The notes: generated by a model from the sequence alone, not told the origin. DNA of 64,000 bases from Sedimentisphaerales bacterium (GCA_963667715.1 OY763926.1:2654177-2718176), one strand, 5' to 3'; counted from the first letter of the stretch, positions 1-16,133 are shown. Program-made: numbers and translations.

Positions 1-549
1 TTGCCATATACACTGGCCGCGAGCAGCGAAAAACACAAGAACTTCAAGATATTCATATCATTCCTTTCCGGCCGTCTGGCAGGCTATATCGCTGTTGGGA
101 TGATATTAGGTGCACTGGGGGCATTTTCCAGTAGTTATCTTGACCCGCACACATCTATCCAATTAAAACGGATATCATATCCGATAGCTGGTGTTGTATT
201 ACTGGCGGGTGGATTGAAGCTAAGTATGCCTGAACTTAAAATATGTAAGCTGTACAGCAGATTTTATAAATCAGATATCAACGCCCTGCTGCTCGGATTA
301 ATAACCGGCTTGAGCTTGTGCCCTCCTTTTTTTGCCGCTGCCGCCCGGGTATTTGGTGAACAGTCAACACTGGGCGGAGCGTTGTACTTTTTCATATTCT
401 ACCTTGGTACAAGCATATGGTTCCTGCCGCTGCTGGGAGTACCAGCTATAAAACGTGTGGTAAAACCGATACAACTAATCTCACGTACCGCAATGATACT
501 TATCGGCATATACTATCTGGTCTTCATGGGCATACTCGGAGCATTTTAA
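1..549 (+). CDS. Integral membrane protein, DsbD_2/CcdA- or TauE-like (5' end probably cut by the window edge)
   Basis: The frame is open from base 1 with no upstream context. It has several hydrophobic G/A/L-rich helices, and the block 'LITGLSLCPPFF' is reminiscent of the DsbD_2-type transmembrane family. The stop lies 4 nt before the next gene. Confidence 0.5.
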   Translation: MPYTLAASSEKHKNFKIFISFLSGRLAGYIAVGMILGALGAFSSSYLDPHTSIQLKRISYPIAGVVLLAGGLKLSMPELKICKLYSRFYKSDINALLLGLITGLSLCPPFFAAAARVFGEQSTLGGALYFFIFYLGTSIWFLPLLGVPAIKRVVKPIQLISRTAMILIGIYYLVFMGILGAF

Positions 550-553
550 GTAA

Positions 554-1738
554 ATGATTAAGATGAAAGTTCAACGCAGTAAAAATGCTTTATCTATCCC
601 GGCAGCGGTAATGCTTTATATTATGATGCTGGCAATAATGCATTTTTTCATCATTCAACATAATCAGGGCACAGCAACAGCGGCCAGCTGGGTGTATTAT
701 ATATACCTGTCTGTACTATATGGCCTGATGCTATACACCGGCAAGACGGGCTTCTATCGCCGTATTTTCTTTATATCATTTGCATTGCTGTTTTTCCCAG
801 CATTTATTGCAAATCTGGTCGAAATGCGCGGCAGCATGGGCCTGACAGAAGCCGACATAGTAAATAGCGAAACACCATTCTGTCATATTGTAATACCTAT
901 AACAATGATCCAGGGAGTAATAAGCAAAACGATCATCTTCCCAGCCAGAATGACCAGCCATTATGCTTCAGTATACTCTATGATCAGTATATGGCTGATC
1001 GCATCTATGATCCTGGGGCGAGGTTGGTGTTCCTGGATATGCTTTTATGGAGGTTGGGAAGAAGGAGCCTCACATATCTCGAAGAAAAAGAGACTTAATA
1101 TTGACAATCCACCAGAGGTTCTGCGGTTCTTTAACTACTCAATGCTAATGTTCTTGGTGCTGGTATCACTGGCAACAGCTTCATCGATATATTGCGAATG
1201 GTTCTGCCCATTTAAGATGGTAACAGAATATGCAGAAGTGACCAATCTTAAAAGCTACCTTGCTACGATCATGTTTATATGCCTGTTCTTTGGTCTGGTA
1301 ATAGTAATGCCTTTCTTGACAAAGAAAAGATTCCAGTGCTCTGTCTTTTGCCCATTTGGCGCTTTCCAAAGCATAGTAGATCGCGTGAGTATGTACCGGG
1401 TAAGAATCGATACCGAGAAGTGTGTTAAGTGCGGTAAATGTATACGCATGTGCCCTACGCTGTCAATGACAGAAAGCTCATATAAAAGTAAAGGGGAGCC
1501 TCTTTATAGCTGCACAAAATGTGGAGAATGTATAGATAACTGCCCAACAGGTGCGATATCATACGGATTCAGTATCCATAAAAAAGTAATTCACCATAAA
1601 GGCTTATTCAGAGATTTGCTATCACCAGATGCCCTGCTGCCTTTTACCGCGTTTATATTTGGCATGATAATATCATCAGGATTTGCAACACAAACAATAG
1701 CAATGCTGCTTTCGCTGTTTTCAGGAGAACAGATATGA
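554..1738 (+). CDS. Polytopic membrane 4Fe-4S ferredoxin-type protein (NapH/NosR/MauN-like)
   Basis: 394-aa ORF with multiple TM helices. It has membrane-proximal Cys blocks (CSWICFYGG, CEWFCPFK, CSVFCPFG) and two classical ferredoxin motifs (CVKCGKCIRMCP, CTKCGECIDNCP). Its stop overlaps the next start (ATGA at 1735-1738). Confidence 0.8.
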   Translation: MIKMKVQRSKNALSIPAAVMLYIMMLAIMHFFIIQHNQGTATAASWVYYIYLSVLYGLMLYTGKTGFYRRIFFISFALLFFPAFIANLVEMRGSMGLTEADIVNSETPFCHIVIPITMIQGVISKTIIFPARMTSHYASVYSMISIWLIASMILGRGWCSWICFYGGWEEGASHISKKKRLNIDNPPEVLRFFNYSMLMFLVLVSLATASSIYCEWFCPFKMVTEYAEVTNLKSYLATIMFICLFFGLVIVMPFLTKKRFQCSVFCPFGAFQSIVDRVSMYRVRIDTEKCVKCGKCIRMCPTLSMTESSYKSKGEPLYSCTKCGECIDNCPTGAISYGFSIHKKVIHHKGLFRDLLSPDALLPFTAFIFGMIISSGFATQTIAMLLSLFSGEQI

Positions 1739-3273
1739 GATCGATAGGAGTTTTAATTTCAGGAATAATCGCTCTACTAAGCGCGTTGTCTGTACCGCTT
1801 TTCTTTATTAACAGCGGAGTGATAGAAAAGTATATGTACCAGAGCTACCCAATGCAGGTGGCCGAAAACTATACCGGCGGAAGTGTATATTCCAGTTTTA
1901 ACGATCCATATGGCGATGATAATGGAGAAGGGACTCTGACATATCCTGATAACAAATACTGGCAGAGAATGAATACGCTAGATATTATCCGCTATGTAGT
2001 ACACAAGCCAGTCACTGACGGTAAATGGTCATCACAAAAGGTATTCTGGCAGCTTGATATAACACTGGGAGCATTAGATAATCCGCTTAACGCACCAGCT
2101 GGCTTTACCCACCCGGCCATTCACATATATATAGACATTGACGGCCAAAAGAGCGGTTCAACCACAACAGCGGAGCCTGAATGTGAGATGGTACAGTTCT
2201 GTAAAGAGCACCCATGGGATTATTACGTGGATATTAACGGGTTCAGTACAACCGGCAAACTTAAATCTGCTGAGGGTAAATATGAGAAGGAATTTCCTTT
2301 TTACCTGGACAAGAAAAATAATACTATTATTGCCAGACTGCCACTTGAAAAAGATGGCTTACTTAACATACTTGACGGCAGAGCTACCGCCCATTATGTA
2401 TTAGTAGGTGCATATTCACAGCTGGACAATGGACATTTTATGAAAGTACAGCCAGGTAATAGTACTACCGTTTGCGGATGCGGAGCAAAATGCATGCTAA
2501 GTCCAAAAGTATATGATATGCTCACGCCAGAATCACATAGCCAGCGAGATATGCTTAATTCATATAACGTAACATCCTGTACACCAGCTACCATATACCC
2601 AGTAATTGCTAACGGCAAAGAAGTAAAAAGTACAGTCACACCAATGGTAAGTCTGGAAGAATTGAAAGCAGCGGCGGAAAAAGAAGTAGCATCTGAGCCT
2701 GAACCTGAAAGTATAGAAGATATACTATCCGGAGATAAAAGCCAGACAGATAAAATGGTAGAATTATTCAAAGCCAACCATATTGATAAAGCTGAAGAGC
2801 TCGCCCAAACCATACTTGCTGAGGATAGTGACAATGCCGTTGTACTGGCTTATTCTGGCAGTATAAGTGCGATTCGAGGTGGTCAGGCAACGTCAATAAT
2901 GGATGCCGTCGGGTGCGTGCAAAAGGCCTACGAAATATTCGACAAGGCCGAAAAACTGATGAGCACAGAACAAGAGCTGTTACAACTCTACCTCAACCGT
3001 GGTAATGTCTCACTGATAGTACCAGAAGCTGTATTTCATAAAAGCCAGCTGGGAGCAGAAGACTTCGAGAAAGCGGGAAATATATATCTGTCAATGGGCA
3101 ATGAGTACAAACCCGAAGCCGGCGAGTCATTCTACAATGCTGGTAAGTGTCTGGAAAATGTTGACAGTAAGATACAGGCTGAAATAATGTTCAGTCGAGC
3201 AGCGGCAATTCCAAATCTGAAAGCTACAACACGCTATGAGCTGGCCAAAATGGGCTATATTGGCTCAAACTAA
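1735..3273 (+). CDS. Membrane-anchored exported protein with a glucodextranase-C/DOMON-like domain and a helical (TPR-like) C-terminus
   Basis: The N-terminal TM/signal anchor is MRSIGVLISGIIALLSALSVPLFF. The block 'DPYGDDNGEGTLTYPDN ... LDIIRYVV ... FTHPAIHIYIDIDG' matches my memory of the glucodextranase C-terminal (PF09985-type) signature. The C-terminal third is helical and repeat-like. Confidence 0.55.
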   Translation: MRSIGVLISGIIALLSALSVPLFFINSGVIEKYMYQSYPMQVAENYTGGSVYSSFNDPYGDDNGEGTLTYPDNKYWQRMNTLDIIRYVVHKPVTDGKWSSQKVFWQLDITLGALDNPLNAPAGFTHPAIHIYIDIDGQKSGSTTTAEPECEMVQFCKEHPWDYYVDINGFSTTGKLKSAEGKYEKEFPFYLDKKNNTIIARLPLEKDGLLNILDGRATAHYVLVGAYSQLDNGHFMKVQPGNSTTVCGCGAKCMLSPKVYDMLTPESHSQRDMLNSYNVTSCTPATIYPVIANGKEVKSTVTPMVSLEELKAAAEKEVASEPEPESIEDILSGDKSQTDKMVELFKANHIDKAEELAQTILAEDSDNAVVLAYSGSISAIRGGQATSIMDAVGCVQKAYEIFDKAEKLMSTEQELLQLYLNRGNVSLIVPEAVFHKSQLGAEDFEKAGNIYLSMGNEYKPEAGESFYNAGKCLENVDSKIQAEIMFSRAAAIPNLKATTRYELAKMGYIGSN

Positions 3274-3286
3274 TATAGTCTTGCCC

Positions 3287-4192
3287 CTAAGCTGTTTCCT
3301 GTCGCAGATTTGTAATATCACGCAACGGCGAATTACCAAATAGGCGACTATACTCTCTGCTAAACTGGGATGGACTCTCATAGCCTACCTTAAAGGCCGC
3401 CATGCCAGCATCCAACGACTCTGCCAGCATAAGCCTGCGGGCTTCACTAAGCCGGAGCCATTTTTGATATTGAAGTGGACTCATTGCGGTCATTTTACGG
3501 AAATGATGATGGAATGTCGATGGGCTCATATGCACATGAGAGGCCAGCTCTTCAACCCTTAGCTGGTCGCTATAGTTTGTCTTGAGCCAGCTGATCGCCT
3601 TTGCTATCTGATGGCTGGAGCTGCCGGCAGATGCCATCTGCCTCAAACGCAGCCCCTGATCACCGACCAGAACACGATAATATATTTCTCGTTTTATGAC
3701 TGGTGCCAAAATAGGAATATCGTCAGGTTCATCCATCAGCTGCACCAGCCTCTTAAAAGCGTCGAGCAGTGGCAGAGTAACTTCACCAAGAGCAATTCCC
3801 CTGGTTGACGGCTCTGTTCTGGGCTGAGGCAGATTCCCTTCCACAACAAGCTGAGATATTTCTTTTAGATCTAGATTTAGTGCCAATCCCAGACAAGGAA
3901 GCTCGGGTGAGGCTTTCACTACCTGCACTGTAGTAGGTATATCGATAGAAGAGAGTAAAAAGTGGTCTGAGTCATAAGTGTACGAGTCGCTTCCAAGAAT
4001 AACTCTTTTAGCCCCCTGCACAGTCAGACACAATACCGGCTCATACATTGCATTATCCGGCTGAGTAGGTTTTGTACGCCGGAAACAGGCCAGACCTTGA
4101 ATCTCAGTCTCAGCAAAGTTCAGACCTCCGGTTATTTGGGCAATTGCATCCGATAATATTTTAAGTTCTTTTTTCACAATAGTTAACCTCAA
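3287..4192 (-). CDS. AraC family transcriptional regulator (AraC_N-type sensor domain + HTH_18)
   Basis: The C-terminal block 'LRVEELASHVHMSPSTFHHHFRKMTAMSPLQYQKWLRLSEARRLM ... VGYESPSQFSREYSRLFG' is the canonical double AraC HTH. The gene is divergent from the flavodoxin-cupin-ADH genes. Confidence 0.9.
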   Translation of the reverse strand: MRLTIVKKELKILSDAIAQITGGLNFAETEIQGLACFRRTKPTQPDNAMYEPVLCLTVQGAKRVILGSDSYTYDSDHFLLSSIDIPTTVQVVKASPELPCLGLALNLDLKEISQLVVEGNLPQPRTEPSTRGIALGEVTLPLLDAFKRLVQLMDEPDDIPILAPVIKREIYYRVLVGDQGLRLRQMASAGSSSHQIAKAISWLKTNYSDQLRVEELASHVHMSPSTFHHHFRKMTAMSPLQYQKWLRLSEARRLMLAESLDAGMAAFKVGYESPSQFSREYSRLFGNSPLRDITNLRQETA

Positions 4193-4392
4193 ATGCTATA
4201 TATATAGTCTATAATATACTGCTACAGATTAGCAAATAATTACCTGTTTTTCAATAAAATCTACTATAGCTCGCTGGATCAGGCAAGAATTAAGCAGGAT
4301 CAATCTACCACTTACCCGCTTTTGATCGTATAATTATATAGGTGAACAATAACAGGTAAACTGCCTACAATAACCAGCAAGAAGGAACTTAT

Positions 4393-4881
4393 ATGGCCAA
4401 TAACATAAAATCAAAGGTTTTAATAGCATATTACTCATATAGTGGAAATACCAGATCGATAGCAGAAGAGATCAAGAACCAGACAGGCGGTAAAATATTT
4501 GAGATATTACCAACCGAAGCGTATCCAACCAGCTATAATGCCTGCGTGTCTAAAGCACGCAAAGAATGTGGCAGTAAATTCAAGCCGGAGCTGGTTAATA
4601 TAGTACCAGACATAGAAGACTATGACACTATTTTTATTGGCACACCAAACTGGTGCAGCACAATGGCACCACCAGTACTAAGCTTCATTGCTAAACATAA
4701 TATGGAAGGTAAGAAAGTTATACCATTTGTAACTCACGGCGGTGGTGGAATGGCTCGCTGTGAAGCTGACATTCAAAAAGCTTGCAGCGGTTCAACTTTC
4801 GCCAAAGCAATAGGCCTGTATAATAACAGTAATAGAAACAACGAAACCACACTATCTGAATGGATAGCACAGTCAATTTAA
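4393..4881 (+). CDS. Flavodoxin family protein
   Basis: The N-terminal 'KVLIAYYSYSGNTRSIAEEI' is an FMN phosphate-binding loop (S/T-x-S-G-N-T). The protein is 162 aa. An AAGGA Shine-Dalgarno sequence lies upstream. Confidence 0.85.
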   Translation: MANNIKSKVLIAYYSYSGNTRSIAEEIKNQTGGKIFEILPTEAYPTSYNACVSKARKECGSKFKPELVNIVPDIEDYDTIFIGTPNWCSTMAPPVLSFIAKHNMEGKKVIPFVTHGGGGMARCEADIQKACSGSTFAKAIGLYNNSNRNNETTLSEWIAQSI

Positions 4882-4897
4882 TAAAGAGGTAAATAAC

Positions 4898-5320
4898 ATG
4901 AATACTGAAGATAATAAAAATAGCAACCACCTGCCAGATGTTTTTCCTAAAGGTGAGGTAATATCAAATAACTTTATTGGCAAGGCCTGGCTTTCGTTCC
5001 TTACAAAAAATGACGAATGCGATATCTTGATCTACAATGTAACATTTGAACCAGGCTGTCGCAATGACTGGCATAAACACAGTGTTGGCCAGATATTACT
5101 ATGCACAGTAGGTGTCGGCTATTATCAGGAACGCGGTAAAGCGGCTCAGAGACTAGAGCCGGGCGATGTGGTGAATATACCAGCTAATGTGGACCATTGG
5201 CACGGAGCTGCTCCAGACTGTGAATTCGCTCATATCGGACTGACACCTAAGATGAGCGAAAACAAAGTGGAATGGCTCGGACAGGTGAATGACCAAGAGT
5301 ATAATGAAGCAGTAAAATAA
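4898..5320 (+). CDS. Cupin domain protein
   Basis: Cupin motifs 'GCRNDWHKHSVGQIL' and 'GDVVNIPANVDHWHGA' in a 140-aa protein. Confidence 0.8.
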   Translation: MNTEDNKNSNHLPDVFPKGEVISNNFIGKAWLSFLTKNDECDILIYNVTFEPGCRNDWHKHSVGQILLCTVGVGYYQERGKAAQRLEPGDVVNIPANVDHWHGAAPDCEFAHIGLTPKMSENKVEWLGQVNDQEYNEAVK

Positions 5321-5380
5321 ATATTTACTAATCACATCTCTTTAGGACAATAAATAATAATACAATCGAAAGGTAATATC

Positions 5381-6571
5381 ATGCAATTTGAATATTATAA
5401 TCCAACCCATATGATATTCGGTGCCGGTTCTCTGGCCCGCATAGGTGAAGTAGCAAGCAAATATGGTAAAACAGCTCTGGTAGTAACTGGCAGTGGAAGT
5501 GTCAAGCGAAACGGTACTTTTGACAAACTGACAAAAAGCCTCACAGATGCCGGAGTAGCTATATTTGAATGTGACGGCATAGAACCTAACCCAAGAATAT
5601 CATCTGTCAGACGCGGTGCGGCAACTGCCAGAGAGAATAAATGTGACATGATCATCGCTTTGGGCGGCGGTAGTACCATGGATGCCAGTAAGGCGATCGC
5701 TGCGGCGGTATTATACGATGGCGATCCATGGGATATGGTATTCCACGGTCAGGAAAATGTCCATATCCCCACCGAAGCTTTGCCAATAATAACAGTTCCA
5801 ACGCTGGCTGCGACAGGTTCTGAAATGAACTGCGGAGCTGTGATAACAAATGAAGAGACTACAGAAAAGTCATTCATGAGTACTGGCTGTCTGTACCCCA
5901 AAGTTGCGATAGTTGACCCACAACTAACAGTCAGCGTCCCTAAAAATCAAACAGCATACGGCGTTTGTGACATTATCACACATATAACAGAATCATACTT
6001 AAATAGCTCAGATACCACACCAATACAAGATAAATTCGCCGAAGGTGCTATACTCACAGCTATTGAATATGGTCAAAAGGCAATTGCTGACGGCAATGAT
6101 CTCGAAGCGAGAGCTCAGGTGCAATGGGCATCTATCGTAGCACTTAACGGCTGGATCGGCTCAGGTTCAGGTAGTGCTGGGTTCCCGGTACATATGATCG
6201 AGCATACCGTATCAGCCTACCATGATATCACACATGCTGCAGGTTTGGCAATAATCAACCCGGCGTGGATGAGATTTGCCGCAAAGAGCAATACTCCTAA
6301 GTTTGTACAGTTTGCAGAGCGTATTTTCGGGTTAAAAGCTAAAGGCCCGGACGATCTGGAATGTGCAATGGCTGGAATAGATAAATTTGAAGAATTCCTG
6401 AAGTCTATAAGTTGTCCAGTACGCTTCTCAGAACTGGGAATAGGCGATGAGCTAATTGAGACATACGCCAAAGAAACCCTGCGGATAATAAATGACGGCA
6501 AAGGAAACCTACCTGCCTTGCCTGCAATGTCAGTAGACGATATTATCGAGGTATTGAAAGCCGCACTATAA
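5381..6571 (+). CDS. Iron-containing (group III) alcohol dehydrogenase, butanol dehydrogenase/YqhD-like
   Basis: Fe-ADH signatures: 'IIALGGGSTMDASKAIA', 'TLAATGSEMN', and His-rich metal-site blocks 'CDIITHITESY' and 'HMIEHTVSAYHDITHAAGLA'. Confidence 0.9.
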   Translation: MQFEYYNPTHMIFGAGSLARIGEVASKYGKTALVVTGSGSVKRNGTFDKLTKSLTDAGVAIFECDGIEPNPRISSVRRGAATARENKCDMIIALGGGSTMDASKAIAAAVLYDGDPWDMVFHGQENVHIPTEALPIITVPTLAATGSEMNCGAVITNEETTEKSFMSTGCLYPKVAIVDPQLTVSVPKNQTAYGVCDIITHITESYLNSSDTTPIQDKFAEGAILTAIEYGQKAIADGNDLEARAQVQWASIVALNGWIGSGSGSAGFPVHMIEHTVSAYHDITHAAGLAIINPAWMRFAAKSNTPKFVQFAERIFGLKAKGPDDLECAMAGIDKFEEFLKSISCPVRFSELGIGDELIETYAKETLRIINDGKGNLPALPAMSVDDIIEVLKAAL

Positions 6572-6625
6572 AACATAAATTTAATACCGCCGTAGTAGAA
6601 ACTATGGTGCTTATTGACCGACTAA

Positions 6626-6660
6626 AGCCTTGTATGCTAAATGCATTCAAGGCTTTTTTT
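6626..6660 (+). terminator. Intrinsic terminator after the alcohol dehydrogenase gene (part of an alternative-pairing element)
   Basis: AAAGCCTTG (6624-6632) pairs with CAAGGCTTT (6648-6656), followed by a T7 run (6654-6660). Confidence 0.6.
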
Positions 6661-6804
6661 GTTAGCATACAAGGCAAAAGCAACTCCAATAAAATAAAGT
6701 CCATCTCATTTGCAACTATGTCTATTCTATTTATAGGTATTTTTACAATAATAAAGATTGGATATTTCAATACAAGCACCTGGACAATCATGGAGTTACT
6801 ACAA

Positions 6805-8433
6805 ATGACAGGAAAAGAAAGAGTACTAAAAGCAATTAGCTGCCAACAGGTTGACAGAATCCCCTGGGTGCCTTTTGTTGGAGTGCATGGAGCTTCACTG
6901 ATCGATATGACAGCAAATGATTATCTAAAATCATCTGAGGCAATCGTAAAAGGTGTAAACAAAGCTGTAGAACTATACGAACCAGACGGCATTCCTGTTG
7001 TATTTGATTTGCAGATCGAAGCAGAAATACTGGGCTGCGAGCTTAAATGGGCAAAAGATAACCCGCCGGCTGTCGTATCTCACCCATTATCAAATGGAAT
7101 AGAGCTTAATAGCCTTATCGTGCCCAAAGCAGACATGAGCAGACTGAAGGTTTCACTCGATGCAACAAAAAAGCTAAGAAAGCAACATCCGGATATTGCA
7201 TTGTATGGCCTGATAACCGGTCCATTTACACTTGCCCTGCATCTATTAGGTACAGATCTGTTTATGAAGATGTTTGACAACCCGGAATATATCTTCCAAC
7301 TTATGGAATTCTGTCGAGACGTAAATATAGCAGTAAGTAAATACTACATAGAAGCCGGTTGTGATATAGTAGCGATAGTAGACCCAATGACAAGCCAGAT
7401 AGGCCCTGAAGAATTCAGCAGTTTTATAACTCCATATGTTAAAGCGGTGTTTGAATCGATAAGAAAAGAGGGTGCTAAAAGCTCATTTTTCGTCTGCGGT
7501 CACGCGCAGCAGAACATATCAGCGATGTGCGACTGTAAGCCGGATAATGTTTCTATTGACGAAAATATACCGCTGGATTTTGTTCGAGATGAATGCCTTA
7601 AACGAAATATCAGTTACGGCGGTAACTTACAGCTGACAAGTGTCCTGCTGCTTGGCAATGAACTAGACAGCCAGAAAGATGCTATACGATGCATTGATAC
7701 CTGTAACGATCACGGTGGTTTCCTACTGGCACCCGGCTGTGATCTGCCGTTTGCCACACCACCAGAAAACCTAAAGGCAATATCTGAAATCATTATAGAT
7801 CAATACAAACTAGATGTCGCAAGAAATATCCCGCAAGACAGCTGCGAACTGCCAGTATTTGATATGAGCCAATATGGCCAAAGTGATAAAGTAATAGTGG
7901 ACATAATCACCCTGGACTCTGAAGCGTGTGCTCCTTGTCAATATATGGTTGACGCTGTTAGAAAAGTATTACCAGAATTTAACGGTATAGTTGAGATGCA
8001 GGAACATAAGATCAAATATAAAGAATCTATCCAGTTCATGACATCGCTAATGGTACGCAATATACCAACTATATGCATTGACGGGCAGATAACATTTGTT
8101 TCTCGGATCCCACCCCACGATGAGCTGGCAAAAGCTATCCAGAAACGAATAAATGAAAAATTCAGTATGATGGTAAAACAGCGAAAGGCAACACTATACA
8201 TCCTGGACAGCGACGATATTTACAGCAGTAATATCAAAGACAGGATAGGTCAGGCTGCGCAGGAACTAGGGGTAAACGTTGACATTGAAACAATAACTGA
8301 GCCCACAGAAATAGCCTCTTACGGAGCTGTTAAAAGCCAGACTCCGGCAGTGGTCATGGCACAATACAGCCTGAAATCTGCCCGGCATATACCAGAAGTA
8401 GCGGCAATAAAAGAATGGCTCAAGGGCGTATAA
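6805..8433 (+). CDS. URO-D superfamily (MtaA/CmuA-like) corrinoid methyltransferase fused to two C-terminal thioredoxin-fold (Thioredoxin_3-like) domains
   Basis: 'MTGKERVLKAISCQQVDRIPWVPF', 'GCDIVAIVDP', 'FFVCGH' and 'LLAPGCDLPF' are typical of the MtaA/URO-D family. Residues after about 7888 read like small glutaredoxin/thioredoxin-like proteins, the first with C-A-P-C (7927-7938). Start choice: ATG 6805 has GGAG 9 nt upstream, and ATG 6790 is an alternative. The ORF-track start 6604 runs through a terminator and is rejected. Confidence 0.8.
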   Translation: MTGKERVLKAISCQQVDRIPWVPFVGVHGASLIDMTANDYLKSSEAIVKGVNKAVELYEPDGIPVVFDLQIEAEILGCELKWAKDNPPAVVSHPLSNGIELNSLIVPKADMSRLKVSLDATKKLRKQHPDIALYGLITGPFTLALHLLGTDLFMKMFDNPEYIFQLMEFCRDVNIAVSKYYIEAGCDIVAIVDPMTSQIGPEEFSSFITPYVKAVFESIRKEGAKSSFFVCGHAQQNISAMCDCKPDNVSIDENIPLDFVRDECLKRNISYGGNLQLTSVLLLGNELDSQKDAIRCIDTCNDHGGFLLAPGCDLPFATPPENLKAISEIIIDQYKLDVARNIPQDSCELPVFDMSQYGQSDKVIVDIITLDSEACAPCQYMVDAVRKVLPEFNGIVEMQEHKIKYKESIQFMTSLMVRNIPTICIDGQITFVSRIPPHDELAKAIQKRINEKFSMMVKQRKATLYILDSDDIYSSNIKDRIGQAAQELGVNVDIETITEPTEIASYGAVKSQTPAVVMAQYSLKSARHIPEVAAIKEWLKGV

Positions 8434-9363
8434 ATGCAAAATAACTATGCACAAATTGAAGTTTGGCTGCTGACAGGGTTTCTGGGCTCGGGCAAGACTA
8501 CCATGCTAAACGCCTTGCTCAATAATGAGTATTTTGCTGATAAAGATACCGCACTGGTGATAAATGAATACGGTAGTATCGGGATAGACAGCAACCTTAT
8601 CCAGAAACAGGAGCTGCCAAAATACGAGATCAATAAGGGCAGTATTTTCTGTATCTGTACCAAAACTGAATTTTTCAAGGTATTTGAACAATTGCGGACA
8701 AATCGACCTGAAATTGTCATTATAGAAGCTACAGGGATTGCAGAAACCAGCGGTATAGAACAACTTCTTAGTGAACCCATGCTGGAAAACTTATTCAAAA
8801 CACGTTGCAATATTTGCATGGTAGATGCGAAGAACTTTGTCCAGACTGCTGCATTTCTAAAAACGGCCGTTTCACAAGTAGAACAGGCAGATGCTGTTAT
8901 TATAAATAAAATTGACCTCGCAACTGCTAATAGCCTGGCTCAGACTCAGGAAATAGTTACCAGGCTAAACCCAGCTGCTCAGATCTACAAAGCTGAATAT
9001 GGAAAGGTTAAAAGCGACTTTTTAACCAGTATATGTCGACAGAATAAGAAAAGCGTAATATCGCAGAATCCCCCAGGGAAAATGCCGTCATCATACATAA
9101 AAACTGATATACCACTCGATAAGAATGTGTTTTTTTACACTGTTGAAAAGCTTAAAAAGAGCATACTTAGACTAAAAGGGAATATTGCTTTTACAGATTG
9201 TAATGCATTTATTGAAATCGCCGGCCAAGAGATAATTGTAAAACCGGCATGTCAAAACATGGGTAATCACACATCATTTTGTGTAATTGGATGGGAAATC
9301 GAGAAACAGGAGCTTACAGCCGCATTTGAAAAATGCTTATATAAAGCTCATCAGAATCAGTAA
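8434..9363 (+). CDS. CobW/COG0523-family G3E P-loop GTPase (metallochaperone-like)
   Basis: Walker A 'GFLGSGKTT', 'IIEATGIAE', 'NKIDL' and a CobW_C-like C-terminus. The start abuts the previous stop (TAAATG). Confidence 0.85.
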   Translation: MQNNYAQIEVWLLTGFLGSGKTTMLNALLNNEYFADKDTALVINEYGSIGIDSNLIQKQELPKYEINKGSIFCICTKTEFFKVFEQLRTNRPEIVIIEATGIAETSGIEQLLSEPMLENLFKTRCNICMVDAKNFVQTAAFLKTAVSQVEQADAVIINKIDLATANSLAQTQEIVTRLNPAAQIYKAEYGKVKSDFLTSICRQNKKSVISQNPPGKMPSSYIKTDIPLDKNVFFYTVEKLKKSILRLKGNIAFTDCNAFIEIAGQEIIVKPACQNMGNHTSFCVIGWEIEKQELTAAFEKCLYKAHQNQ

Positions 9364-9407
9364 TCGCACATAGAAACAAAGAATATTGTAAAATAACAGG
9401 AGTAGTA

Positions 9408-10037
9408 ATGACAGATTTACAACTATTAGCAAATTCGGTAATAAATGGCAAGCAAGACGATGCCATACGAATTACAACTGAAGCAATAATGGATAATATA
9501 TCGCCACAGCAGATACTGGAAGATGGCCTGATAGCCGGCATGAGCGTAGTTGGAGTTCGGTTCAAGGCAAATGAGATATATGTACCACAGGTACTTATTG
9601 CCGCACGTGCAATGAAATCGGCCATGGAAATACTTGAGCCCAAACTAGCAGAAGCGGGAGTAAGTGCACTGGGTAGAGCTGTTGTCGGAACAGTACAAGG
9701 CGACCTGCACGACATCGGTAAAAACCTTGTGGTTATGATGCTAAAAGGTGCAGGCTTTGAAGTGTGCGACCTTGGTGTGGATAAATCGCCGGAAGAATTT
9801 ATTATAAAGGCCAAAGAGCTAAACGCCGAGATCATTGGCTTAAGTGCACTGCTGACAACTACAATGCCAGCTATGGCACAGACTGTTGAAACAATCCGTC
9901 AGTCAGGGTTATCATGCAAAATAATGGTGGGCGGAGCACCTGTAACCCAGGAATTTGCCGACCAGATAGGAGCTGACGGCTATTCCGCTGATGCCGCCTC
10001 AGCGGTAGAAACGGCCAAAAAACTAATGAGTCATTAA
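9408..10037 (+). CDS. Corrinoid (B12-binding) protein of a methyltransferase system
   Basis: A B12-binding_2 helical cap is followed by a Rossmann domain with the lower-ligand motif D-x-H-x-x-G ('GDLHDIGKN', 9702-9719), then 'LSALLTTTM' and 'KIMVGGAPV'. An AGGAG Shine-Dalgarno sequence lies upstream. Confidence 0.9.
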   Translation: MTDLQLLANSVINGKQDDAIRITTEAIMDNISPQQILEDGLIAGMSVVGVRFKANEIYVPQVLIAARAMKSAMEILEPKLAEAGVSALGRAVVGTVQGDLHDIGKNLVVMMLKGAGFEVCDLGVDKSPEEFIIKAKELNAEIIGLSALLTTTMPAMAQTVETIRQSGLSCKIMVGGAPVTQEFADQIGADGYSADAASAVETAKKLMSH

Positions 10038-10038
10038 C

Positions 10039-10081
10039 CAAAAAAGTTCCTGTAAGCTAATAAGTACTTACAGGAACTTTA
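10039..10081. terminator. Bidirectional intrinsic terminator between convergent genes
   Basis: Perfect 12-bp stem AGTTCCTGTAAG (10045-10056) / CTTACAGGAACT (10067-10078), flanked by an A-run on the left and TTT on the right. Confidence 0.65.
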
Positions 10082-10100
10082 ATCTTATAACTACAAAAAC

Positions 10101-13100
10101 TTAATAGCTTAGGTTGTACAAATTCTGAATTTCATTTTCAGGAAGTGCACGGTCAAATATATACAGTTCATCAATATTCCCATTAAAGTATTGCCTACCA
10201 GCTGAGAACATTCCGATGGTGACATTATCGCCTTCTGCTGTGCTTATATCACAAGGAGCACAAGCACCTGCTATCTCAAGCGAACCATCAATATACATAA
10301 GCACATCTTCAACATTAGGTGAACCATCATCGGCAAAAACAACTGCAACATGATGCCATTGGCCGTCGGCAAGATTTCTGGTACCGCTAATATAACCGCC
10401 TGAAACCTCAACCCTGAGATTGCTGTCACCATTTAAACGTACAAGCCATTTAGCACCGATATCAGTTGATCCCCAACTGAGAATATGCTTGCCGGGAGTC
10501 TCAGTTTTTATCCACATACTGCAAGTCCTGTCCTGCGTCCCTGTTATCCCCTTATAGGACATACAGAATACATAATCGTTTATGCCATCAAGTAAAAGAC
10601 TGCTATTTATTACACCATCTCCACCTGGATCACTATTGGCACCATTATATGCATAACATAGCCTCTGGTATATAGACCCGTCTTCAAAGGTATTGCCATC
10701 TTTTTCATCACAAGACAGATATAATAACACATCTTTCTTAACAATTTTCTTTATTTCATCAATAGAGAGGGCACGTTCATATATCTTTATATCATCGATC
10801 ATACCCGGCAGAAACTTACCTGGTACATCATTTACATATATAGCACCAGCGAGAACATTTCTGCTGGCATTGGTGTTTATCACCTGCTCACCGGCAAAAG
10901 TAACACCCTGCACCACGCCGTCAACTAAAAGAATAATGTCTTTGACGGTAGCGTTATCACTTCCATTTAGTATAGCAGCAACATGGTGCCACTGATCATC
11001 GTCTATCTTATTAATAGTACTGATATAACCGCCAAAGATACCAACTCCAAGCCTGCCGTCGGATTCAACCCTAAACAGCCACGCTTCACCAGCACTAGCC
11101 TGTCCCCAGGTAAGAATACCAAGCTGCTCATTAACATTTGTCTTCACCCAGGCCATGCACGTACGGCTGGCAGAACCGCCCACACCATAACAGCCGTCAA
11201 GTTCTATATAGTCACCTTCCCCGTCAAGTGAAACAGCTCCACCGCCCAGAACAGCTGGGATATAATAGTCATCGATATAAGCATCGCCATGTAATACCGC
11301 AGCGTTTCCGTTTACTACATCCTGAGTATCAGTATTCAATGGCCAATAGCCTATTATATTTGCATTATCGGCCAATGCCAACCATTGGCTGGCCATGACC
11401 TCAATATCTGCAATATCAATATTACAATCTCCAGTAATATCTGTACCTGAACAAGCATTATTCATCCATTCGGCAGCCAACATAGAGAAGTCTGCAATAT
11501 CGATATTTCCATCGCCACTAATATCAGCGGAAGTGTTACAACTACACTGGCATGAATCGTAATAGAATGATTCTAATGAAGAATTATGAGCTTCTATAGC
11601 TGGAATATAGTAGCAGTGCGAAACATTAGATAGGGGATTGTTAGTAATATCAACATTAACTAAACCAGTTTGTGTTGTTATTGGCTGAATATTACTAATA
11701 TTATTATTTTGCAGATAAACATTTTCCAGACGATCACAAGACGCTAATAGAGAAATATCAATGATCTCATTATTATTCAATACAACGCCAGCCAAACGAG
11801 GCATATTTGAAACAAATGAAATATCACTAACCCCGCAATTGCCTATATATAAAAATTGCATATTCCCCATATAATATAGTAGCCCCGGGTCAAGATTTGT
11901 TATATTACAAGCATTCAGTAATATAAGACTATCACAAGTATCCAAAACACTAGTATCTGTTATTGGGTTAGAATCAATCATCAATGTATTCAGGACAGGA
12001 TAATTAGCGATAACTGAAATATCTGCTATTTCATTATCTGAAATACCGAGTACCTCAAGTCTGGTCAGGCCACTTAATATTGATATATCAGTGATATGAT
12101 TATATTCTGCATGAAGATATCTTAAATCGGTAAAACTTTGCAAAGGTGATAGATCAGATAATTCGTTACCATCTACCCAAAGAGTTTGCAGAGATGTAAG
12201 ACCGCCAATAGGCTCAAGACTAGCGACATTATTGCCAGAAAGGTTAAGATATTCAAGATTTTTAGCATACTGAAGACCAGCCAACTCTGATATATTCCGG
12301 CCAACAGCATCAAGAGTCGCAAGGGCCATGATATCGATCACATTTGGCGAAATCACACCAAGCTGCTCTTCTACTGCAGCTTTGAGATTTGGGTCAGTAA
12401 AAACTACAGTATCAAAAGCAGATGGTTTAGACTCAAATTCAATTATGTAACCAACAACATCCCCAGCATATACCAGGTCAACAATATTTTCAGCATCATT
12501 CCAATAAGCAGCACGATAACCAACGCACATAAACTGTAGATAATCTTCAACATTAAGTAAGTTATTAGGCTCAACACCATGCCATCTGGAGTAGGTCCAG
12601 GGGCTGCCGTCAACCCAGGTCCAGCTTCCACCCGGTTCATTATTTTTATTGATCTGATAGCCGCCAAGCCATGGGCCGGCAAAATGAACATCAACATCAA
12701 TGAGCCATTCAGTCCAATACATATCGTAATCACTGATCATGTAAACAAAATCATTCTCCTGCTCGCTGGTAATAGAAACGAGGTGGCCACCTGCTTCAAT
12801 TGCGGCACTGTTAGCACACTGCCACGAAATACCATTCGGAGCAGCAACTGCAAGGTAATAATGCCCATTACCACCTGCACCTTCAGACCATTGAACAACT
12901 GTACCAGGTACATATTCATCATTATCAACAGCTGTAACATTTATCTCAACTGTATCACATTGTTCAGACTCAAGTAGCAACATCGCAGAGCTGTCAAGAA
13001 AATCGTCATCATCTTCCTCTGCAGAAATAATAACTGTTTTACCAGAACTGTAATTTGTATTGTCAAAAACCAGAGTATCACCAAAAATTATTGCCAGATC

Positions 13101-13340
13101 CTGCCCTAGAGATTCAATTCTGGCAGATACTGTAAGGTTCCCCTCTGGAGCTTGGGAAAGACTAACATAAATAATTTTAAAGTCACCTTCTGGAACATTT
13201 ATTAAAGCTTCTGAGACAATTATACTTACATCGGAAAGCTCACCCGTTTCGTAAGCCGATGCACCAGACACCAAAATAACAAAAGATAATAGAAATAATA
13301 TACGAACAGAATTTGTTACATTACCAAGCAGTTTAAACAT
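10101..13340 (-). CDS. Large secreted multidomain protein: C-type lectin domain + leucine-rich repeats + dockerin-like Ca-binding repeats + 2 x LamG (Laminin_G_3)
   Basis: It has a signal peptide. The CTLD covers aa ~148-302 ('GGHLVSITSEQENDFV ... WLGG ... WTWVDGSPWTYSRW..EPNN ... WND'). About 10 LRRs cover aa ~340-575 ('L..L..L.L..N.I.DIS'). The dockerin-like repeats are 'DISGDGNIDIADFSMLAAEW' and 'DITGDCNIDIADIEVMASQW'. Two LamG modules each carry 'W(H)HVA.. ..DG' and 'IDD(E)..IY.RAL' blocks. Confidence 0.8.
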   Translation of the reverse strand: MFKLLGNVTNSVRILFLLSFVILVSGASAYETGELSDVSIIVSEALINVPEGDFKIIYVSLSQAPEGNLTVSARIESLGQDLAIIFGDTLVFDNTNYSSGKTVIISAEEDDDDFLDSSAMLLLESEQCDTVEINVTAVDNDEYVPGTVVQWSEGAGGNGHYYLAVAAPNGISWQCANSAAIEAGGHLVSITSEQENDFVYMISDYDMYWTEWLIDVDVHFAGPWLGGYQINKNNEPGGSWTWVDGSPWTYSRWHGVEPNNLLNVEDYLQFMCVGYRAAYWNDAENIVDLVYAGDVVGYIIEFESKPSAFDTVVFTDPNLKAAVEEQLGVISPNVIDIMALATLDAVGRNISELAGLQYAKNLEYLNLSGNNVASLEPIGGLTSLQTLWVDGNELSDLSPLQSFTDLRYLHAEYNHITDISILSGLTRLEVLGISDNEIADISVIANYPVLNTLMIDSNPITDTSVLDTCDSLILLNACNITNLDPGLLYYMGNMQFLYIGNCGVSDISFVSNMPRLAGVVLNNNEIIDISLLASCDRLENVYLQNNNISNIQPITTQTGLVNVDITNNPLSNVSHCYYIPAIEAHNSSLESFYYDSCQCSCNTSADISGDGNIDIADFSMLAAEWMNNACSGTDITGDCNIDIADIEVMASQWLALADNANIIGYWPLNTDTQDVVNGNAAVLHGDAYIDDYYIPAVLGGGAVSLDGEGDYIELDGCYGVGGSASRTCMAWVKTNVNEQLGILTWGQASAGEAWLFRVESDGRLGVGIFGGYISTINKIDDDQWHHVAAILNGSDNATVKDIILLVDGVVQGVTFAGEQVINTNASRNVLAGAIYVNDVPGKFLPGMIDDIKIYERALSIDEIKKIVKKDVLLYLSCDEKDGNTFEDGSIYQRLCYAYNGANSDPGGDGVINSSLLLDGINDYVFCMSYKGITGTQDRTCSMWIKTETPGKHILSWGSTDIGAKWLVRLNGDSNLRVEVSGGYISGTRNLADGQWHHVAVVFADDGSPNVEDVLMYIDGSLEIAGACAPCDISTAEGDNVTIGMFSAGRQYFNGNIDELYIFDRALPENEIQNLYNLSY

Positions 13341-13882
13341 AAATCAACCTTTCATTTAAATAGAAATTCCCCATCTTTACTAGTGAAAATGATAATGACG
13401 AATAATCCCTTACAGGCAACATATCTCCCAGAATTACATGTACATTACCCCATAAATACAGCTTATTTAAGAAAGAATCACGTTAGAATAATAGGGCCTG
13501 CCAACAAAGATTATCAAGTAATTAAAACATATATCCGAAAAAAAAGTATATAGTTGCATTTTATTACAAAAGGTAATTCTATTAGGTAGGACCAACCCAG
13601 ACCGACACCAACATAAACTACTTTACAATAAGTATTTACAAAACACAAACTCCCCTTCCAGCTATCTGCCAATATTTGCAGTAGGTAAATAAATATCAAA
13701 TGCCAATTACTATTCTGCCTATCGCATGCTAAAAAGAATAATAATTGTTAAGAAAATCAGTAAAATGGATTATAAATGTGGAGTATATACAAGTATTTAA
13801 CCGTACTACAGATTTAATTTTAGTATATCAGAATGTTTTTTAATGCGTTTTTTGCAACAGAACGTGTAAAAGTTAATTATAA

Positions 13883-14404
13883 ATGTCATTAAATGAAGAA
13901 CAAATAGTTGAGCTGGTGCTAACACACAGGCTTAAGCTGATCTCGTTTATGAGGTCAATAGTATGCGATTTTCACGTTGCTGAAGACCTGTACCAGAAGG
14001 TGTGCCTGTCTGCCCTGCAGAACAAAGAAAAATTCACAGACAGCGGCCATCTGATGAAATGGGTGTGGGTTGTTGGCAGGAATGAATCGTTAAAGCATTT
14101 GCGAGCCCAAAAAAAACAACCAATTGTTCTAAATGAAGAAATCCTTGAGATGATCCAATGCGAATCGGAAAATAATTCGATATTGGATTATCCCGAAATA
14201 CAGTCAATATTGGAAAAATGTATATCCCAGCTCTCCGAGCCGGTAAAGAACTTATTGGAAAAAAGGTATAAACAGAATCTGACTGGTGCTAAACTTGCAG
14301 AGTCGTTAAACAGAAATACCAAATCAATATATGTTGCGATCAGCCGGGCACATCGAGCGTTATATAACTGTATGCGAAAGAAAATAGAACCAATGAAAGA
14401 ATAA
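13883..14404 (+). CDS. ECF-type RNA polymerase sigma-70 family factor
   Basis: 173 aa. It has a region 2 block 'AEDLYQKVCLSAL' and a region 4 HTH 'TGAKLAESLNRNTKSIYVAISRAHRAL'. The anti-sigma gene follows immediately. Confidence 0.9.
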   Translation: MSLNEEQIVELVLTHRLKLISFMRSIVCDFHVAEDLYQKVCLSALQNKEKFTDSGHLMKWVWVVGRNESLKHLRAQKKQPIVLNEEILEMIQCESENNSILDYPEIQSILEKCISQLSEPVKNLLEKRYKQNLTGAKLAESLNRNTKSIYVAISRAHRALYNCMRKKIEPMKE

Positions 14405-14405
14405 A

Positions 14406-16133
14406 ATGAGCAATAAAGATAATACAATTTATTCATTCTCAGACTTTTCCGACAGTCGCTTTGATGTGTTGATGCAAGTATACCTTGAAGGAAAGATCAC
14501 AGAAAAAGACGCCGACACGCTCAGAGATTACCTCAAAAGGCCGGAATACGTTAAAAGATTTGTAATGGTCTGTAAACAGGAACAGCTGGTTCATGATATC
14601 ATATCATCCGGAGCAGCTAATAATGCCGAAAGTTCAGCCGAAACTGAGCTTGAAGTTTTACGCCAGTTTGCTATGTATGAAAATAATGCCCCAAGCGTAG
14701 AAAAAGAGCTGCCTAAGCCAGATCCGGTGGTTATTAATACCGTGAAGCTGCCGGAAAGACCGCACAGGGACAAGTTTTCACTCTTAACGATACTGGCTAC
14801 TGCAGCCATAGTACTGCTGGCCCTGATAATCAGACTTACTCCCACTCAGCAAGAACCAAAAGCTGCTATATTATCTGATACCTGTAAAGTATGCTGGACC
14901 GGCCACCTGACAGATCTACAGATTGGTAATAATATATTTACCAATGAAAAAGTAAGTCTGTCACAGGGGCTTATCGAGCTAAAGACCGACCGGGACGTAA
15001 CGGTAATAATAGAAGGCCCAGCTGAATTTGAGTTTAAGACCACATCAGAGTTACAGCTTAATTACGGCCACATATATTCCAAAGTTATGAAGCAAGGTGC
15101 CGGCTTTACAGTTAAAACACCTAATGCAATGATCGTTGACCTTGGAACTGAATTCAGTATAAAGGTAGATAGGTTCCTCGGATCAACACAGGTGCAAATG
15201 TATAAAGGATCAGCGGTAATATCAAATAATCAGGATGAATCTGGACGTGAGATATTAAAAACCGGTATTGCTCGTGCTGTTGACAATCAAGGCGTGATGT
15301 CAGATATTCCATTTGAAAAGAACTGCGTTCTTAACCGAACACTATCTGGATATGAAAAGAAACTGGAAGAGCTGCATGTCAGCAGATATATGACATTTAA
15401 CAATAAAACTTCATGGGTAAATAATTATGTAGGCCGGAATAGTATAAAGGACAATTTCCAATATTACGATACATATACTTCACCATTTAGTGATCAGGAC
15501 GCTCTATTATCCGATTCTGCATTATATTTTAATTCAGACAGTTCCGTCAAAAGCTATGCTCAGCTGCACAATATGCCTGAATTTGATAAAGGAAGCTTTA
15601 CTATTGCCCTGTGGTTTAAGCAAAACCCAGATCAACCCGGCCCCAGAAAACAATATCTGGTATCAAATTATGAGCCGGCTACTGTAAGCGGCTGGAGAAT
15701 TGGTATGCTGGACAATAAACTTTTCATTAGAATGTCTGAATATTCCGCACAACCTATATATCAGCTGTGGATGACAAATGATCAGCCATTAAGCGAAGGC
15801 TGGCATTCAGTAGTAATGGTTGCTGATCGTAGTAATTCGACAGTTACCGGTTATCTTGACGGCAATATAACCAATTGGGCTTTTGCTAATCCAGAAGAGC
15901 TCAAAGCTATTGATAGCGAGTATAACGGTAATACACTGAGTAAGAAACTCCCTAAACATATATCAATATCCACCGATACCGATATCCATCTCGGAATTCG
16001 TCCTAAAAACCTTATGTGCCAATTTAGCGGCTGGATATATGATATGGCAGTATGGAACAGTCCGCTGAACGCTGATAAGATTAAGCAGCTATACAGCAAG
16101 TTCCCATTAGAACAAGATCAAAACAACCAATAA
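14406..16133 (+). CDS. FecR-family transmembrane anti-sigma factor with C-terminal LamG domain
   Basis: It starts 1 nt after the sigma stop. There is a single TM ('FSLLTILATAAIVLLALIIRL'), a FecR-like beta domain ('GLIELKTDRDVTVIIEGPAEFEF ... GAGFTVKTPNAMIVDLGTEFSI') and a C-terminal Laminin_G_3 pattern ('GSFTIALWFK ... GWHSVVMVADRSNSTVTGYLDGN ... FSGWIYDMAVWNSPL'). Confidence 0.85.
   Translation: MSNKDNTIYSFSDFSDSRFDVLMQVYLEGKITEKDADTLRDYLKRPEYVKRFVMVCKQEQLVHDIISSGAANNAESSAETELEVLRQFAMYENNAPSVEKELPKPDPVVINTVKLPERPHRDKFSLLTILATAAIVLLALIIRLTPTQQEPKAAILSDTCKVCWTGHLTDLQIGNNIFTNEKVSLSQGLIELKTDRDVTVIIEGPAEFEFKTTSELQLNYGHIYSKVMKQGAGFTVKTPNAMIVDLGTEFSIKVDRFLGSTQVQMYKGSAVISNNQDESGREILKTGIARAVDNQGVMSDIPFEKNCVLNRTLSGYEKKLEELHVSRYMTFNNKTSWVNNYVGRNSIKDNFQYYDTYTSPFSDQDALLSDSALYFNSDSSVKSYAQLHNMPEFDKGSFTIALWFKQNPDQPGPRKQYLVSNYEPATVSGWRIGMLDNKLFIRMSEYSAQPIYQLWMTNDQPLSEGWHSVVMVADRSNSTVTGYLDGNITNWAFANPEELKAIDSEYNGNTLSKKLPKHISISTDTDIHLGIRPKNLMCQFSGWIYDMAVWNSPLNADKIKQLYSKFPLEQDQNNQ

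Follow-up and report, generated by a model that had tools for sequence, protein, structure and literature searches.

A cluster of three co-directional genes at positions 6805–10037 (+ strand) was analyzed in a 64,000-nt stretch of the genome of a Sedimentisphaerales bacterium (GCA_963667715.1, OY763926.1:2654177-2718176; this whole stretch is called the window below). The genes encode a methyltransferase of the MtaA/uroporphyrinogen decarboxylase (URO-D) family fused to thioredoxin folds (the fusion), a COG0523 GTPase, and a corrinoid protein with the DxHxxG motif (Table 1). These three identities had been proposed from the sequence alone (the original prediction) and were confirmed by Pfam and by the motifs. 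The cluster is a member of a widespread variant of corrinoid methyltransferase system, in which a dedicated COG0523 GTPase accompanies an enzyme derived from MtaA and fused to thioredoxin folds, the metal motifs of both proteins being altered.

Gene content and boundaries of the cluster

The mechanical open reading frame (ORF) of gene 1 begins at 6604 and comprises 609 aa. Position 6805, the predicted start, is the likely one because about 120 homologs of 541–542 aa begin at the equivalent methionine (MTGKER). The ATG of gene 2 follows immediately after the TAA stop of gene 1. Upstream of the cluster, the RNA fold of 6615–6672 had an energy of −19.5 kcal/mol (z = −4.0 versus shuffles) and was followed by UUUUUUU. 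Downstream, the inverted repeat at 10043–10080 folded with −18.5 kcal/mol (z = −5.6) and is probably a bidirectional terminator closing the operon. Because hairpins flank the three genes on both sides, the genes look like a transcription unit of their own. No riboswitch hinting at function was found within 4150–10150 even at E ≤ 1, and none was found in seven related loci at gathering thresholds.

Table 1. Features of the three-gene cluster and its borders, with positions counted from the first nucleotide of the window
Feature	Position	Strand	Remarks
Terminator-like hairpin and U-run	6624..6660	+	3' of the iron-containing alcohol dehydrogenase (Fe-ADH) gene; divides the flavodoxin-cupin-ADH unit from the cluster
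Gene 1, MtaA-like methyltransferase (URO-D fold) with two fused domains, a CxxC thioredoxin and a thioredoxin fold lacking cysteines	6805..8433	+	542 aa; from Pfam, structure and homologs
FFVCGHA motif (aa 228-234)	7486..7506	+	Aligned to 4AY7; at the HxC zinc-ligand position of MtaA
APGCD motif (aa 309-313)	7729..7743	+	Cys312 = second zinc-ligand Cys of MtaA by 4AY7 alignment; Cys in 65/67 members
CAPC redox motif (aa 375-378), first thioredoxin domain	7927..7938	+	C375 and C378 in 65/67 members; remaining two rows gapped there
cis-Pro loop (IPT) matching CAPC	8053-8070	+	P421-T422 invariant in alignment A1
Second thioredoxin fold, without cysteines (aa ~460-542)	8182..8430	+	beta-alpha-beta-alpha-beta-alpha in both AlphaFold2 models
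Gene 2, COG0523 (G3E) GTPase	8434..9363	+	309 aa; Pfam cobW 7e-37, CobW_C 26 bits vs cut-off 22
GTPase P-loop GFLGSGKT, intact	8476-8499	+	Invariant in 34 partner proteins
GTPase metal motif GSIFCIC in place of GCxCC	8638-8658	+	Invariant in 34 partner proteins
GTPase NKxD (NKID)	8905-8916	+	Invariant in 34 partner proteins
Gene 3, corrinoid (B12-binding) protein, cap and Rossmann domains	9408..10037	+	209 aa; Pfam B12-binding_2 4e-23, B12-binding 5e-27
DLHDIG (DxHxxG), aa 99-104	9702-9719	+	Motif location in the corrinoid protein
Perfect 14-bp inverted repeat	10043..10080	.	Between the convergent corrinoid protein and LamG genes; from a terminator scan

The fusion protein

Pfam URO-D matched residues 70–396 of the 609-aa ORF (1.2e-57), corresponding to about 3–329 counted from the 6805 start, and Thioredoxin_3 was matched with 7.2e-11. 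The fusion scored 181 bits with NCBIfam mtaA_cmuA (TIGR01463, cut-off 235), 144 bits with NF040654 (cut-off 400), and 143 bits with NF041608 (cut-off 600), below the cut-off in each case. The nearest solved structure was MtaA 4AY7, with E = 7e-27 by sequence. The AlphaFold2 (AF2) model of the fusion (mean pLDDT 86) matched 4AY7 in Foldseek with a TM-score of 0.90, 2.1 Å root-mean-square deviation, and 24% identity; matches to MetE were also obtained.

The zinc motif HxC…C of MtaA corresponds to F229-V-C231-G-H233…C312 in the fusion. The His position is occupied by Phe229, and His233 lies two residues past Cys231. C231 is invariant and H233 occurs in 55 of 67 family members; the FFVCGHA motif was entirely invariant in 43 close homologs. 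In a search of 1.8 billion cluster representatives, all proteins above ~36% identity had the F-x-C-G form, whether fused to thioredoxin or not, and the remoter relatives (≤32% identity) had the canonical H-I-C-G. In a neighbor-joining tree (rough, without bootstrap), the F-x-C-G group was sister to the canonical group containing MtaA. The URO-D domain, with its altered zinc motif, did not cluster tightly with the conventional methyl-corrinoid:thiol methyltransferases (methyltransferase 2, MT2); such clustering was one of two features that the original prediction had regarded, taken together, as a sign of an ordinary split system.

The C-terminal 200 residues of the fusion formed two tandem thioredoxin folds in the AF2 models. 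The top Foldseek matches of these folds were tandem-thioredoxin proteins, namely protein disulfide isomerase a-b domains and the Pyrococcus furiosus protein disulfide oxidoreductase PDO (1A8L). C375, P377, and C378 are invariant in alignment A1; CxPC with a cis-Pro loop is the signature of a redox-active thioredoxin, an activity predicted here for the first fold. The fused "thiol domains" described earlier were thus present as two thioredoxin folds, but cysteines were found in one of them only. A 448-aa variant of the fusion in Bacteroidota was without the second thioredoxin fold. The identity of the fusion was 60–74% within Sedimentisphaerales-like Planctomycetota and 51–59% across phyla.

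The GTPase and the corrinoid protein

The GTPase was aligned with Escherichia coli YjiA (1NIJ). GCICC of YjiA corresponds to GSIFC in gene 2, in which the third Cys alone is kept and a new Cys stands at +2. The GTPase scored below all NCBIfam equivalog cut-offs, including those of CobW (76 vs. 332 bits) and ZigA (85 vs. 600 bits).

The gene 3 product scored 192 bits with NCBIfam pyl_corrinoid (TIGR02370), just below the cut-off of 215. Orthologs of 208 aa with 64–75% identity occur in Sedimentisphaerales and Anaerohalosphaeraceae. Two sets of related loci (loci are denoted by L and a number) gave side observations on these orthologs. In L044 (7351–10627) and L045 (2961–6237), a PocR-AraC regulator, a canonical MtaA-like gene (HICG…GC, 361 aa), and the corrinoid ortholog lie beside fucose isomerase and GH95 fucosidase genes, a setting that points to another corrinoid methyltransferase system, one linked to glycans containing fucose. 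In L040–L043 (~5800–12200), a solitary corrinoid protein (67% identical) is divergent from a fused electron-transfer flavoprotein (ETF) alpha/beta gene (696 aa) and an ETF:quinone oxidoreductase-like gene, followed by a conserved 458-aa coiled-coil membrane protein. This 458-aa gene was considered as a hidden substrate-side methyltransferase (methyltransferase 1, MT1) and rejected; the product is signal-anchored, coiled-coil-like, and without Pfam match, and has no homolog in the window.

Search for missing partners in the window

The original prediction had noted no partner methyltransferase and no RACo/RamA-type activase, and for the window this held in six-frame searches of the 64 kb with hidden Markov models (HMMs) and in Pfam scans of 26 ORFs within 1–29839. 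The partner HMMs were built from related loci. With these, RACo, pterin-binding methyltransferase, homocysteine S-methyltransferase, and the MetH activation domain gave nothing better than E = 0.2 in the whole 64 kb, and no second URO-D or corrinoid protein gene was found in the six-frame search. The MtaB, MttB, MtbB, and MtgB families had no match among the 26 Pfam-scanned ORFs, all in 1–29839, with the remaining ORFs outside that scan. The four-component O-demethylase set was incomplete in the 64-kb window, with no pterin-binding methyltransferase and no RACo; the MtrH-type MT2 had no dedicated model.

CmuA and the bifunctional MtsA and MtpA are MT1-side enzymes of the URO-D family. The family also includes the O-demethylase MT1 enzymes OdmB/VdmB and CdmB (PMC10418091, PMC13222342). 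The assignment of the URO-D-family member to MT2 in the original prediction was therefore too narrow, and the missing MT1 of the MtaB/MttB type is not anomalous in itself, because MT1 enzymes are found within the URO-D family as well. CdmB, the chloromethane MT1, was considered as a relative of the fusion and rejected; it is zinc-free, O-demethylase-like, and belongs to a different clade.

Conservation of the module and its neighbors

Related loci were taken from species-representative genomes (36) and metagenomes (80), with several contigs added by exact-protein look-up. Neighbors within 5 kb were counted in the 56 loci whose flanks extended for 1.5 kb or more upstream and 4 kb or more downstream; the locus counts are not phylogenetically independent. 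Relatives were present in at least 558 metagenome contigs, and the module in at least seven phyla: Planctomycetota, Lentisphaerota, Verrucomicrobiota, Bacteroidota, Chitinivibrionales, Chlorobiota, and Bacillota (Limnochordia and Clostridia). Among the cultured hosts are Anaerohalosphaera lusitana, Sunxiuqinia, and Saccharicrinis.

The GTPase gene was adjacent to the fusion gene in 52/56 loci, and this conserved two-gene module is the constant core of the cluster. The corrinoid protein was a neighbor in 34/56 loci (61%), mostly in the same operon, followed by a MetH-activation-like protein (PF02965) in 19/56 (34%), other URO-D paralogs in 13/56, homocysteine S-methyltransferase (PF02574) in 10/56 (18%), RACo in 2/56, and pterin-binding methyltransferase in 1/56. 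In the commonest arrangement, shared by 14 loci, the fusion and GTPase genes stood by themselves. Eight loci had the order corrinoid protein > fusion > homocysteine methyltransferase > GTPase, some of them with the activation domain in addition, and corrinoid protein > fusion > GTPase > activation domain was found in 7. The order of the window, fusion > GTPase > corrinoid protein, was found in 4/56 loci, the window included; L039, L047, L048, and L049 also have this order, not all of them passing the flank filter.

The order corrinoid protein > fusion > homocysteine S-methyltransferase > GTPase > MetH-activation-like gene recurs in, e.g., L098, L099, L102, L105, L109, and L119–L125. The MetH-like parts in the related loci are a homocysteine module (PF02574, 2.5e-72), a B12 module, and an S-adenosylmethionine (SAM) activation module (PF02965, with the RxSPGY motif). 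The fusion occurs with a pterin methyltransferase and formyltetrahydrofolate synthetase in L014, L033, and L034. The homocysteine methyltransferase neighbor was restricted to the two-thioredoxin variant (19/64 loci); for the 448-aa one-thioredoxin variant, the corrinoid protein and activation domain were always nearby, and the homocysteine methyltransferase was found in 0/13. This restriction hints at a possible docking role for the second fold, the one without cysteines.

The URO-D paralogs adjoining the fusion have HxC…H, HxD…H, or canonical HxC…C motifs. As a separate observation, L096 (9749–17165) holds seven genes in the order fusion, GTPase, URO-D paralog, two corrinoid proteins, and a further URO-D paralog, with a second CobW-like GTPase, short (195 aa) and lacking the C-terminal domain, in last place; this cluster is followed by an Fe-ADH-like gene and one more large ORF.

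The fusion and the GTPase might act without a corrinoid, either by MetE-like direct methyl transfer or in a non-methyltransferase reaction, with the corrinoid gene of the window being incidental. The 39% of loci without a corrinoid protein gene within 5 kb are consistent with this, as is the relation between the URO-D and MetE folds seen in the Foldseek matches, MetE being an enzyme that needs no corrinoid. However, the corrinoid protein was the second most frequent neighbor, in the same operon orientation across phyla and together with corrinoid re-activation genes, and the fusion is nearest in sequence and fold to a methylcobalamin-dependent enzyme. This explanation was considered very improbable.

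The neighborhoods also bear on the role of the GTPase. It could serve the corrinoid protein, through cobalt or cobalamin delivery or through GTP-dependent reductive activation that replaces the missing RamA/RACo. Among the G3E GTPases are MeaB, a chaperone that delivers B12, and CobW, a chaperone for cobalt (PMC2770081), the window contains no activase, and the non-canonical GSxFCxC suggests a cargo other than the usual zinc. Against this, the GTPase gene stays by the fusion where no corrinoid gene is nearby, and it coexists with RACo (L014, L032, and L033) and with the MetH activation domain (19/56 loci), hence it is no substitute for either. The GTPase is also far below the CobW equivalog cut-off and is without a redox cofactor motif. 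A service to the corrinoid protein is accordingly improbable. Because the GTPase tracks the fusion without a corrinoid gene nearby and coexists with both kinds of re-activation protein, its role would most economically be metal insertion or maintenance in the fusion enzyme, not corrinoid activation.

Proposed function

The cluster is probably a B12-dependent methyl-transfer system with its remaining parts elsewhere in the genome. One option of the original prediction, a partner encoded elsewhere, was supported by the relatives that carry such partners in the operon; the other option, an unusual half-reaction carried out by the lone URO-D enzyme, may hold as well. It is proposed, tentatively and with slightly less than even confidence, that the fusion is a substrate-side, possibly bifunctional MtsA-like methyl-X:corrinoid methyltransferase, that the GTPase matures the fusion, and that the acceptor and reactivation modules lie elsewhere.

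In this proposal, the MtaA-like barrel of the fusion would use a Cys-rich, probably zinc, site (Cys231, Cys312, and perhaps His233) and would move a methyl group from a small methylated donor to Co(I) of the adjacent corrinoid protein. The fusion would be an MT1, like MtsA/MtsB and MtpA/MtpC, and may in addition pass the methyl group on to a thiol. The donor would most likely be a methyl-sulfur or methyl-selenium compound, and less likely methanol or an O-methyl compound. The CxPC thioredoxin domain may perform local disulfide reduction, for example by freeing a thiol or methylthiol from a disulfide or by keeping the metal-ligand cysteines reduced. The translationally coupled GTPase would insert or maintain the metal of the fusion enzyme and would be no substitute for a reductive activase. 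In the relatives, methyl-corrinoid would be consumed by the adjacent MetH-type homocysteine methyltransferase to give methionine, and reactivation would proceed via the MetH-type SAM-binding activation domain or, rarely, RACo. In the source genome, the acceptor and reactivation functions, if needed, would lie outside the operon and outside the 64 kb.

The fusion was placed on the donor side because homocysteine, B12, and SAM-activation modules co-occur with it and the fusion fills the place of the folate module. A soft-ligand substrate is favored because the Cys pair is retained, in line with a rule that Kountz and Balskus summarized, in which Cys zinc ligands are linked to S- and Se-methyl chemistry (PMC10418091).

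The alternative is an ordinary split system, in which the fusion is only an MT2 (methyl-corrinoid:thiol, like archaeal MtaA/MtbA) and empties corrinoid proteins loaded by MT1 enzymes nearby or elsewhere. The acceptor would be sulfide, homocysteine, or another low-molecular-weight thiol, kept reduced by the thioredoxin domain. The nearest characterized relative of the fusion is indeed the MT2 MtaA, and both Cys ligands typical of S-methyltransferases are retained. URO-D paralogs whose ligand sets are of the O type or altered adjoin the fusion in the 13/56 loci noted above, with the c9 type in 3 more. In several loci of Bacteroidota the gene order is paralog > corrinoid protein > fusion > GTPase > activation domain, a complete set of MT1, corrinoid protein, and MT2. 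The module also often stands alone, far from a corrinoid gene, and mtaA and mtbA of methanogens likewise stand apart from the corrinoid protein genes. However, 19 loci have a neighboring homocysteine S-methyltransferase, itself acceptor-side, and no MT1, and in seven loci the fusion is the sole methyltransferase beside the corrinoid protein and activation domain. The adjacency of the corrinoid protein in 61% of loci is usual for MT1 or bifunctional enzymes, and the URO-D domain falls outside the conventional MT2 clade with its His ligand lost. A split system with the fusion as MT2 was judged rather unlikely.

Several points weigh against the donor-side proposal. The direction of transfer is read only from the neighboring genes. 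The URO-D paralogs in the 13/56 loci lie next to the corrinoid protein and could be the MT1, with the fusion as MT2. The corrinoid protein is not adjacent in 39% of loci, and the first His zinc ligand is lost in the fusion. We know of no MT1 or MT2 enzyme that offers a precedent for the thioredoxin domain, and the role proposed for this domain is speculative. In L044, the corrinoid ortholog occurs with a canonical MtaA-like gene in place of the fusion, and confidence is further weakened by the orthologs of the corrinoid protein in Anaerohalosphaeraceae (L040–L044), which are ~67–69% identical. The Bacteroidota loci, including those of cultured Prolixibacteraceae, are set in carbohydrate-utilization genes (sulfatases, GH43-like, rhamnose mutarotase, DUF3826, and, in Prolixibacteraceae, a sodium-solute symporter), a context in which O-methyl sugars or methanol would be donors no less plausible than methyl-sulfur compounds.

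A wider metabolic role of the module is possible, though doubtful. The module may be the donor half of an unrecognized folate-independent B12 route to methionine, or of methyl salvage, in anaerobic polysaccharide degraders. The thioredoxin-assisted MtaA-derived enzyme would demethylate methyl-sulfur or methyl-selenium compounds (methanethiol and its disulfides, dimethyl sulfide), methanol, or O-methyl sugars and load the methyl groups on the corrinoid protein, the MetH-type homocysteine module would make methionine, and the COG0523 GTPase with its re-wired motif would mature the enzyme.

The pair is now labelled "uroporphyrinogen decarboxylase" and "GTP-binding protein". If the proposal is true, a systematic mis-annotation would be corrected, and a very common unannotated pair of anoxic sediment, gut, and digester bacteria would be a new methyl feed into B12-dependent metabolism. 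Algal or plant methylated compounds or volatile methyl-sulfur species would be tied to the methionine supply of Planctomycetota, Bacteroidota, and relatives. The fusion would be the first thioredoxin-fused corrinoid methyltransferase and a defined client for a COG0523 GTPase, a family with mostly unknown targets. Full-text literature searches gave no published description of the fusion, of the bacterial COG0523 pairing, or of this module among corrinoid methyltransferases of Sedimentisphaerales. The instance in the window adds little alone; the family that it revealed is a good experimental target.

Genes surrounding the cluster

Upstream of the cluster, 1–3273 (+) carries three tightly packed genes. 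Two of the products are membrane proteins, one DsbD_2-like and the other a NapH/MauN-like polyferredoxin, and the third has a Glucodextran_C domain and is extended at length at the C terminus. In 3287–6660, an AraC_N-type regulator is divergent from a unit of flavodoxin_4, cupin, and Fe-ADH genes closed by a terminator-like hairpin of its own; the cupin weakly matched acireductone dioxygenase-like proteins (E = 0.001). The flavodoxin, cupin, Fe-ADH, AraC_N, NapH-like, DsbD_2, and Glucodextran_C genes were considered as conserved partners and rejected, as they recur in 0/118 loci. The "AraC" genes upstream of Bacteroidota clusters have the helix-turn-helix part alone in common with the AraC_N gene of the window.

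Flavodoxin is the classical donor for MetH-type re-activation. The flavodoxin (4393–4881) and the NapH-like 4Fe-4S protein (554–1738) had been suggested as low-potential electron sources for the cluster. Both genes are real, but neither is found in any of the 118 related loci; the flavodoxin sits in a separate terminated unit, and the window has no activation domain. A role of either protein as electron donor for the cluster is thus unsupported.

Downstream, 10101–16133 encodes a 1079-aa secreted protein on the minus strand with LamG/lectin-like and leucine-rich-repeat-like regions, followed by an extracytoplasmic function sigma factor and a FecR-LamG anti-sigma-like pair, gene content typical of Planctomycete surface sensing. 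The sole riboswitch of the 64-kb window is a cobalamin riboswitch (RF00174, 74 bits) at 25852–25968 (+), 16 kb from the cluster. It lies ~470 nt 5' of the genes at 26440–29839 (+), which encode a PEP-CTERM protein, two proteins without Pfam match, and a DUF1559/N_methyl pseudopilin-like protein. No Btu transporter set can be recognized among these genes, which could form an uptake system of unusual kind under B12 regulation.

Comparison with known systems

MtaA and MtbA are soluble coenzyme M methyltransferases (MT2) of Methanosarcina. The fusion resembles them in the URO-D TIM-barrel fold, in both Cys zinc ligands, and in the small corrinoid partner. They are its best NCBIfam and PDB matches, yet the fusion remains under all family cut-offs. 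Unlike MtaA and MtbA, the fusion belongs to a sister clade, has FxCGH…C for HxC…C, carries two C-terminal thioredoxin folds, and is paired with a COG0523 GTPase. Its host is bacterial, in which a coenzyme M pathway is not expected, unlike the hosts of MtaA and MtbA.

In MtsA and MtpA of Methanosarcina, a URO-D-family enzyme and a corrinoid protein alone perform the substrate half-reaction on methyl-sulfur compounds, and MtsA performs both half-reactions. MtsA/MtsB and MtpA/MtpC are the best functional analogy to the cluster, likened by layout and not by sequence: one URO-D-family enzyme with a corrinoid protein and no separate MT1. To our knowledge, the methanogen MtsA and MtpA have no thioredoxin fusion and no dedicated GTPase partner.

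With MetH, including its split forms, the likeness lies in the relatives, which encode stand-alone homocysteine, B12, and SAM activation modules around the fusion gene; the window holds the B12 module alone. The folate (pterin-binding) module of MetH is absent from the operons of those relatives, and the MtaA-like fusion stands in its place. A URO-D-type donor module is not part of split MetH and core methionine synthases (PMC7857596).

Type 1 mlp clusters (Kountz and Balskus 2023, PMC10418091) contain bacterial MtaA-like enzymes with Cys-rich zinc sites and a corrinoid protein, without a folate methyltransferase, and were proposed for methyl-sulfur or methyl-selenium compounds. These clusters, mostly from Firmicutes, combine a Ram/RACE activase with two or three Mlps whose sites are the canonical His-Cys-Cys; a thioredoxin fusion or COG0523 partner is not mentioned (PMC10418091). 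The window differs from a Type 1 mlp cluster in having one MtaA-like gene and no RACo.

The placement of a COG0523 gene beside corrinoid methyltransferase genes had been regarded as unusual. It was already described as "subfamily 13" of COG0523 by Haas et al. (2009, PMC2770081), who linked this subfamily to corrinoid methyltransferase genes and proposed a role in metallocenter assembly of zinc-dependent methyltransferases. Gene 2 and subfamily 13, likened by description, have in common a G3E GTPase with CobW_C beside mtaA-, mtaB-, and mtaC-type genes. The CxCC motif, found according to PMC2770081 in all COG0523 members, is SxFCxC here. The pairing of a COG0523 GTPase with a corrinoid methyltransferase is thus not new in principle; what is new is the re-wired GSxFCxC motif.

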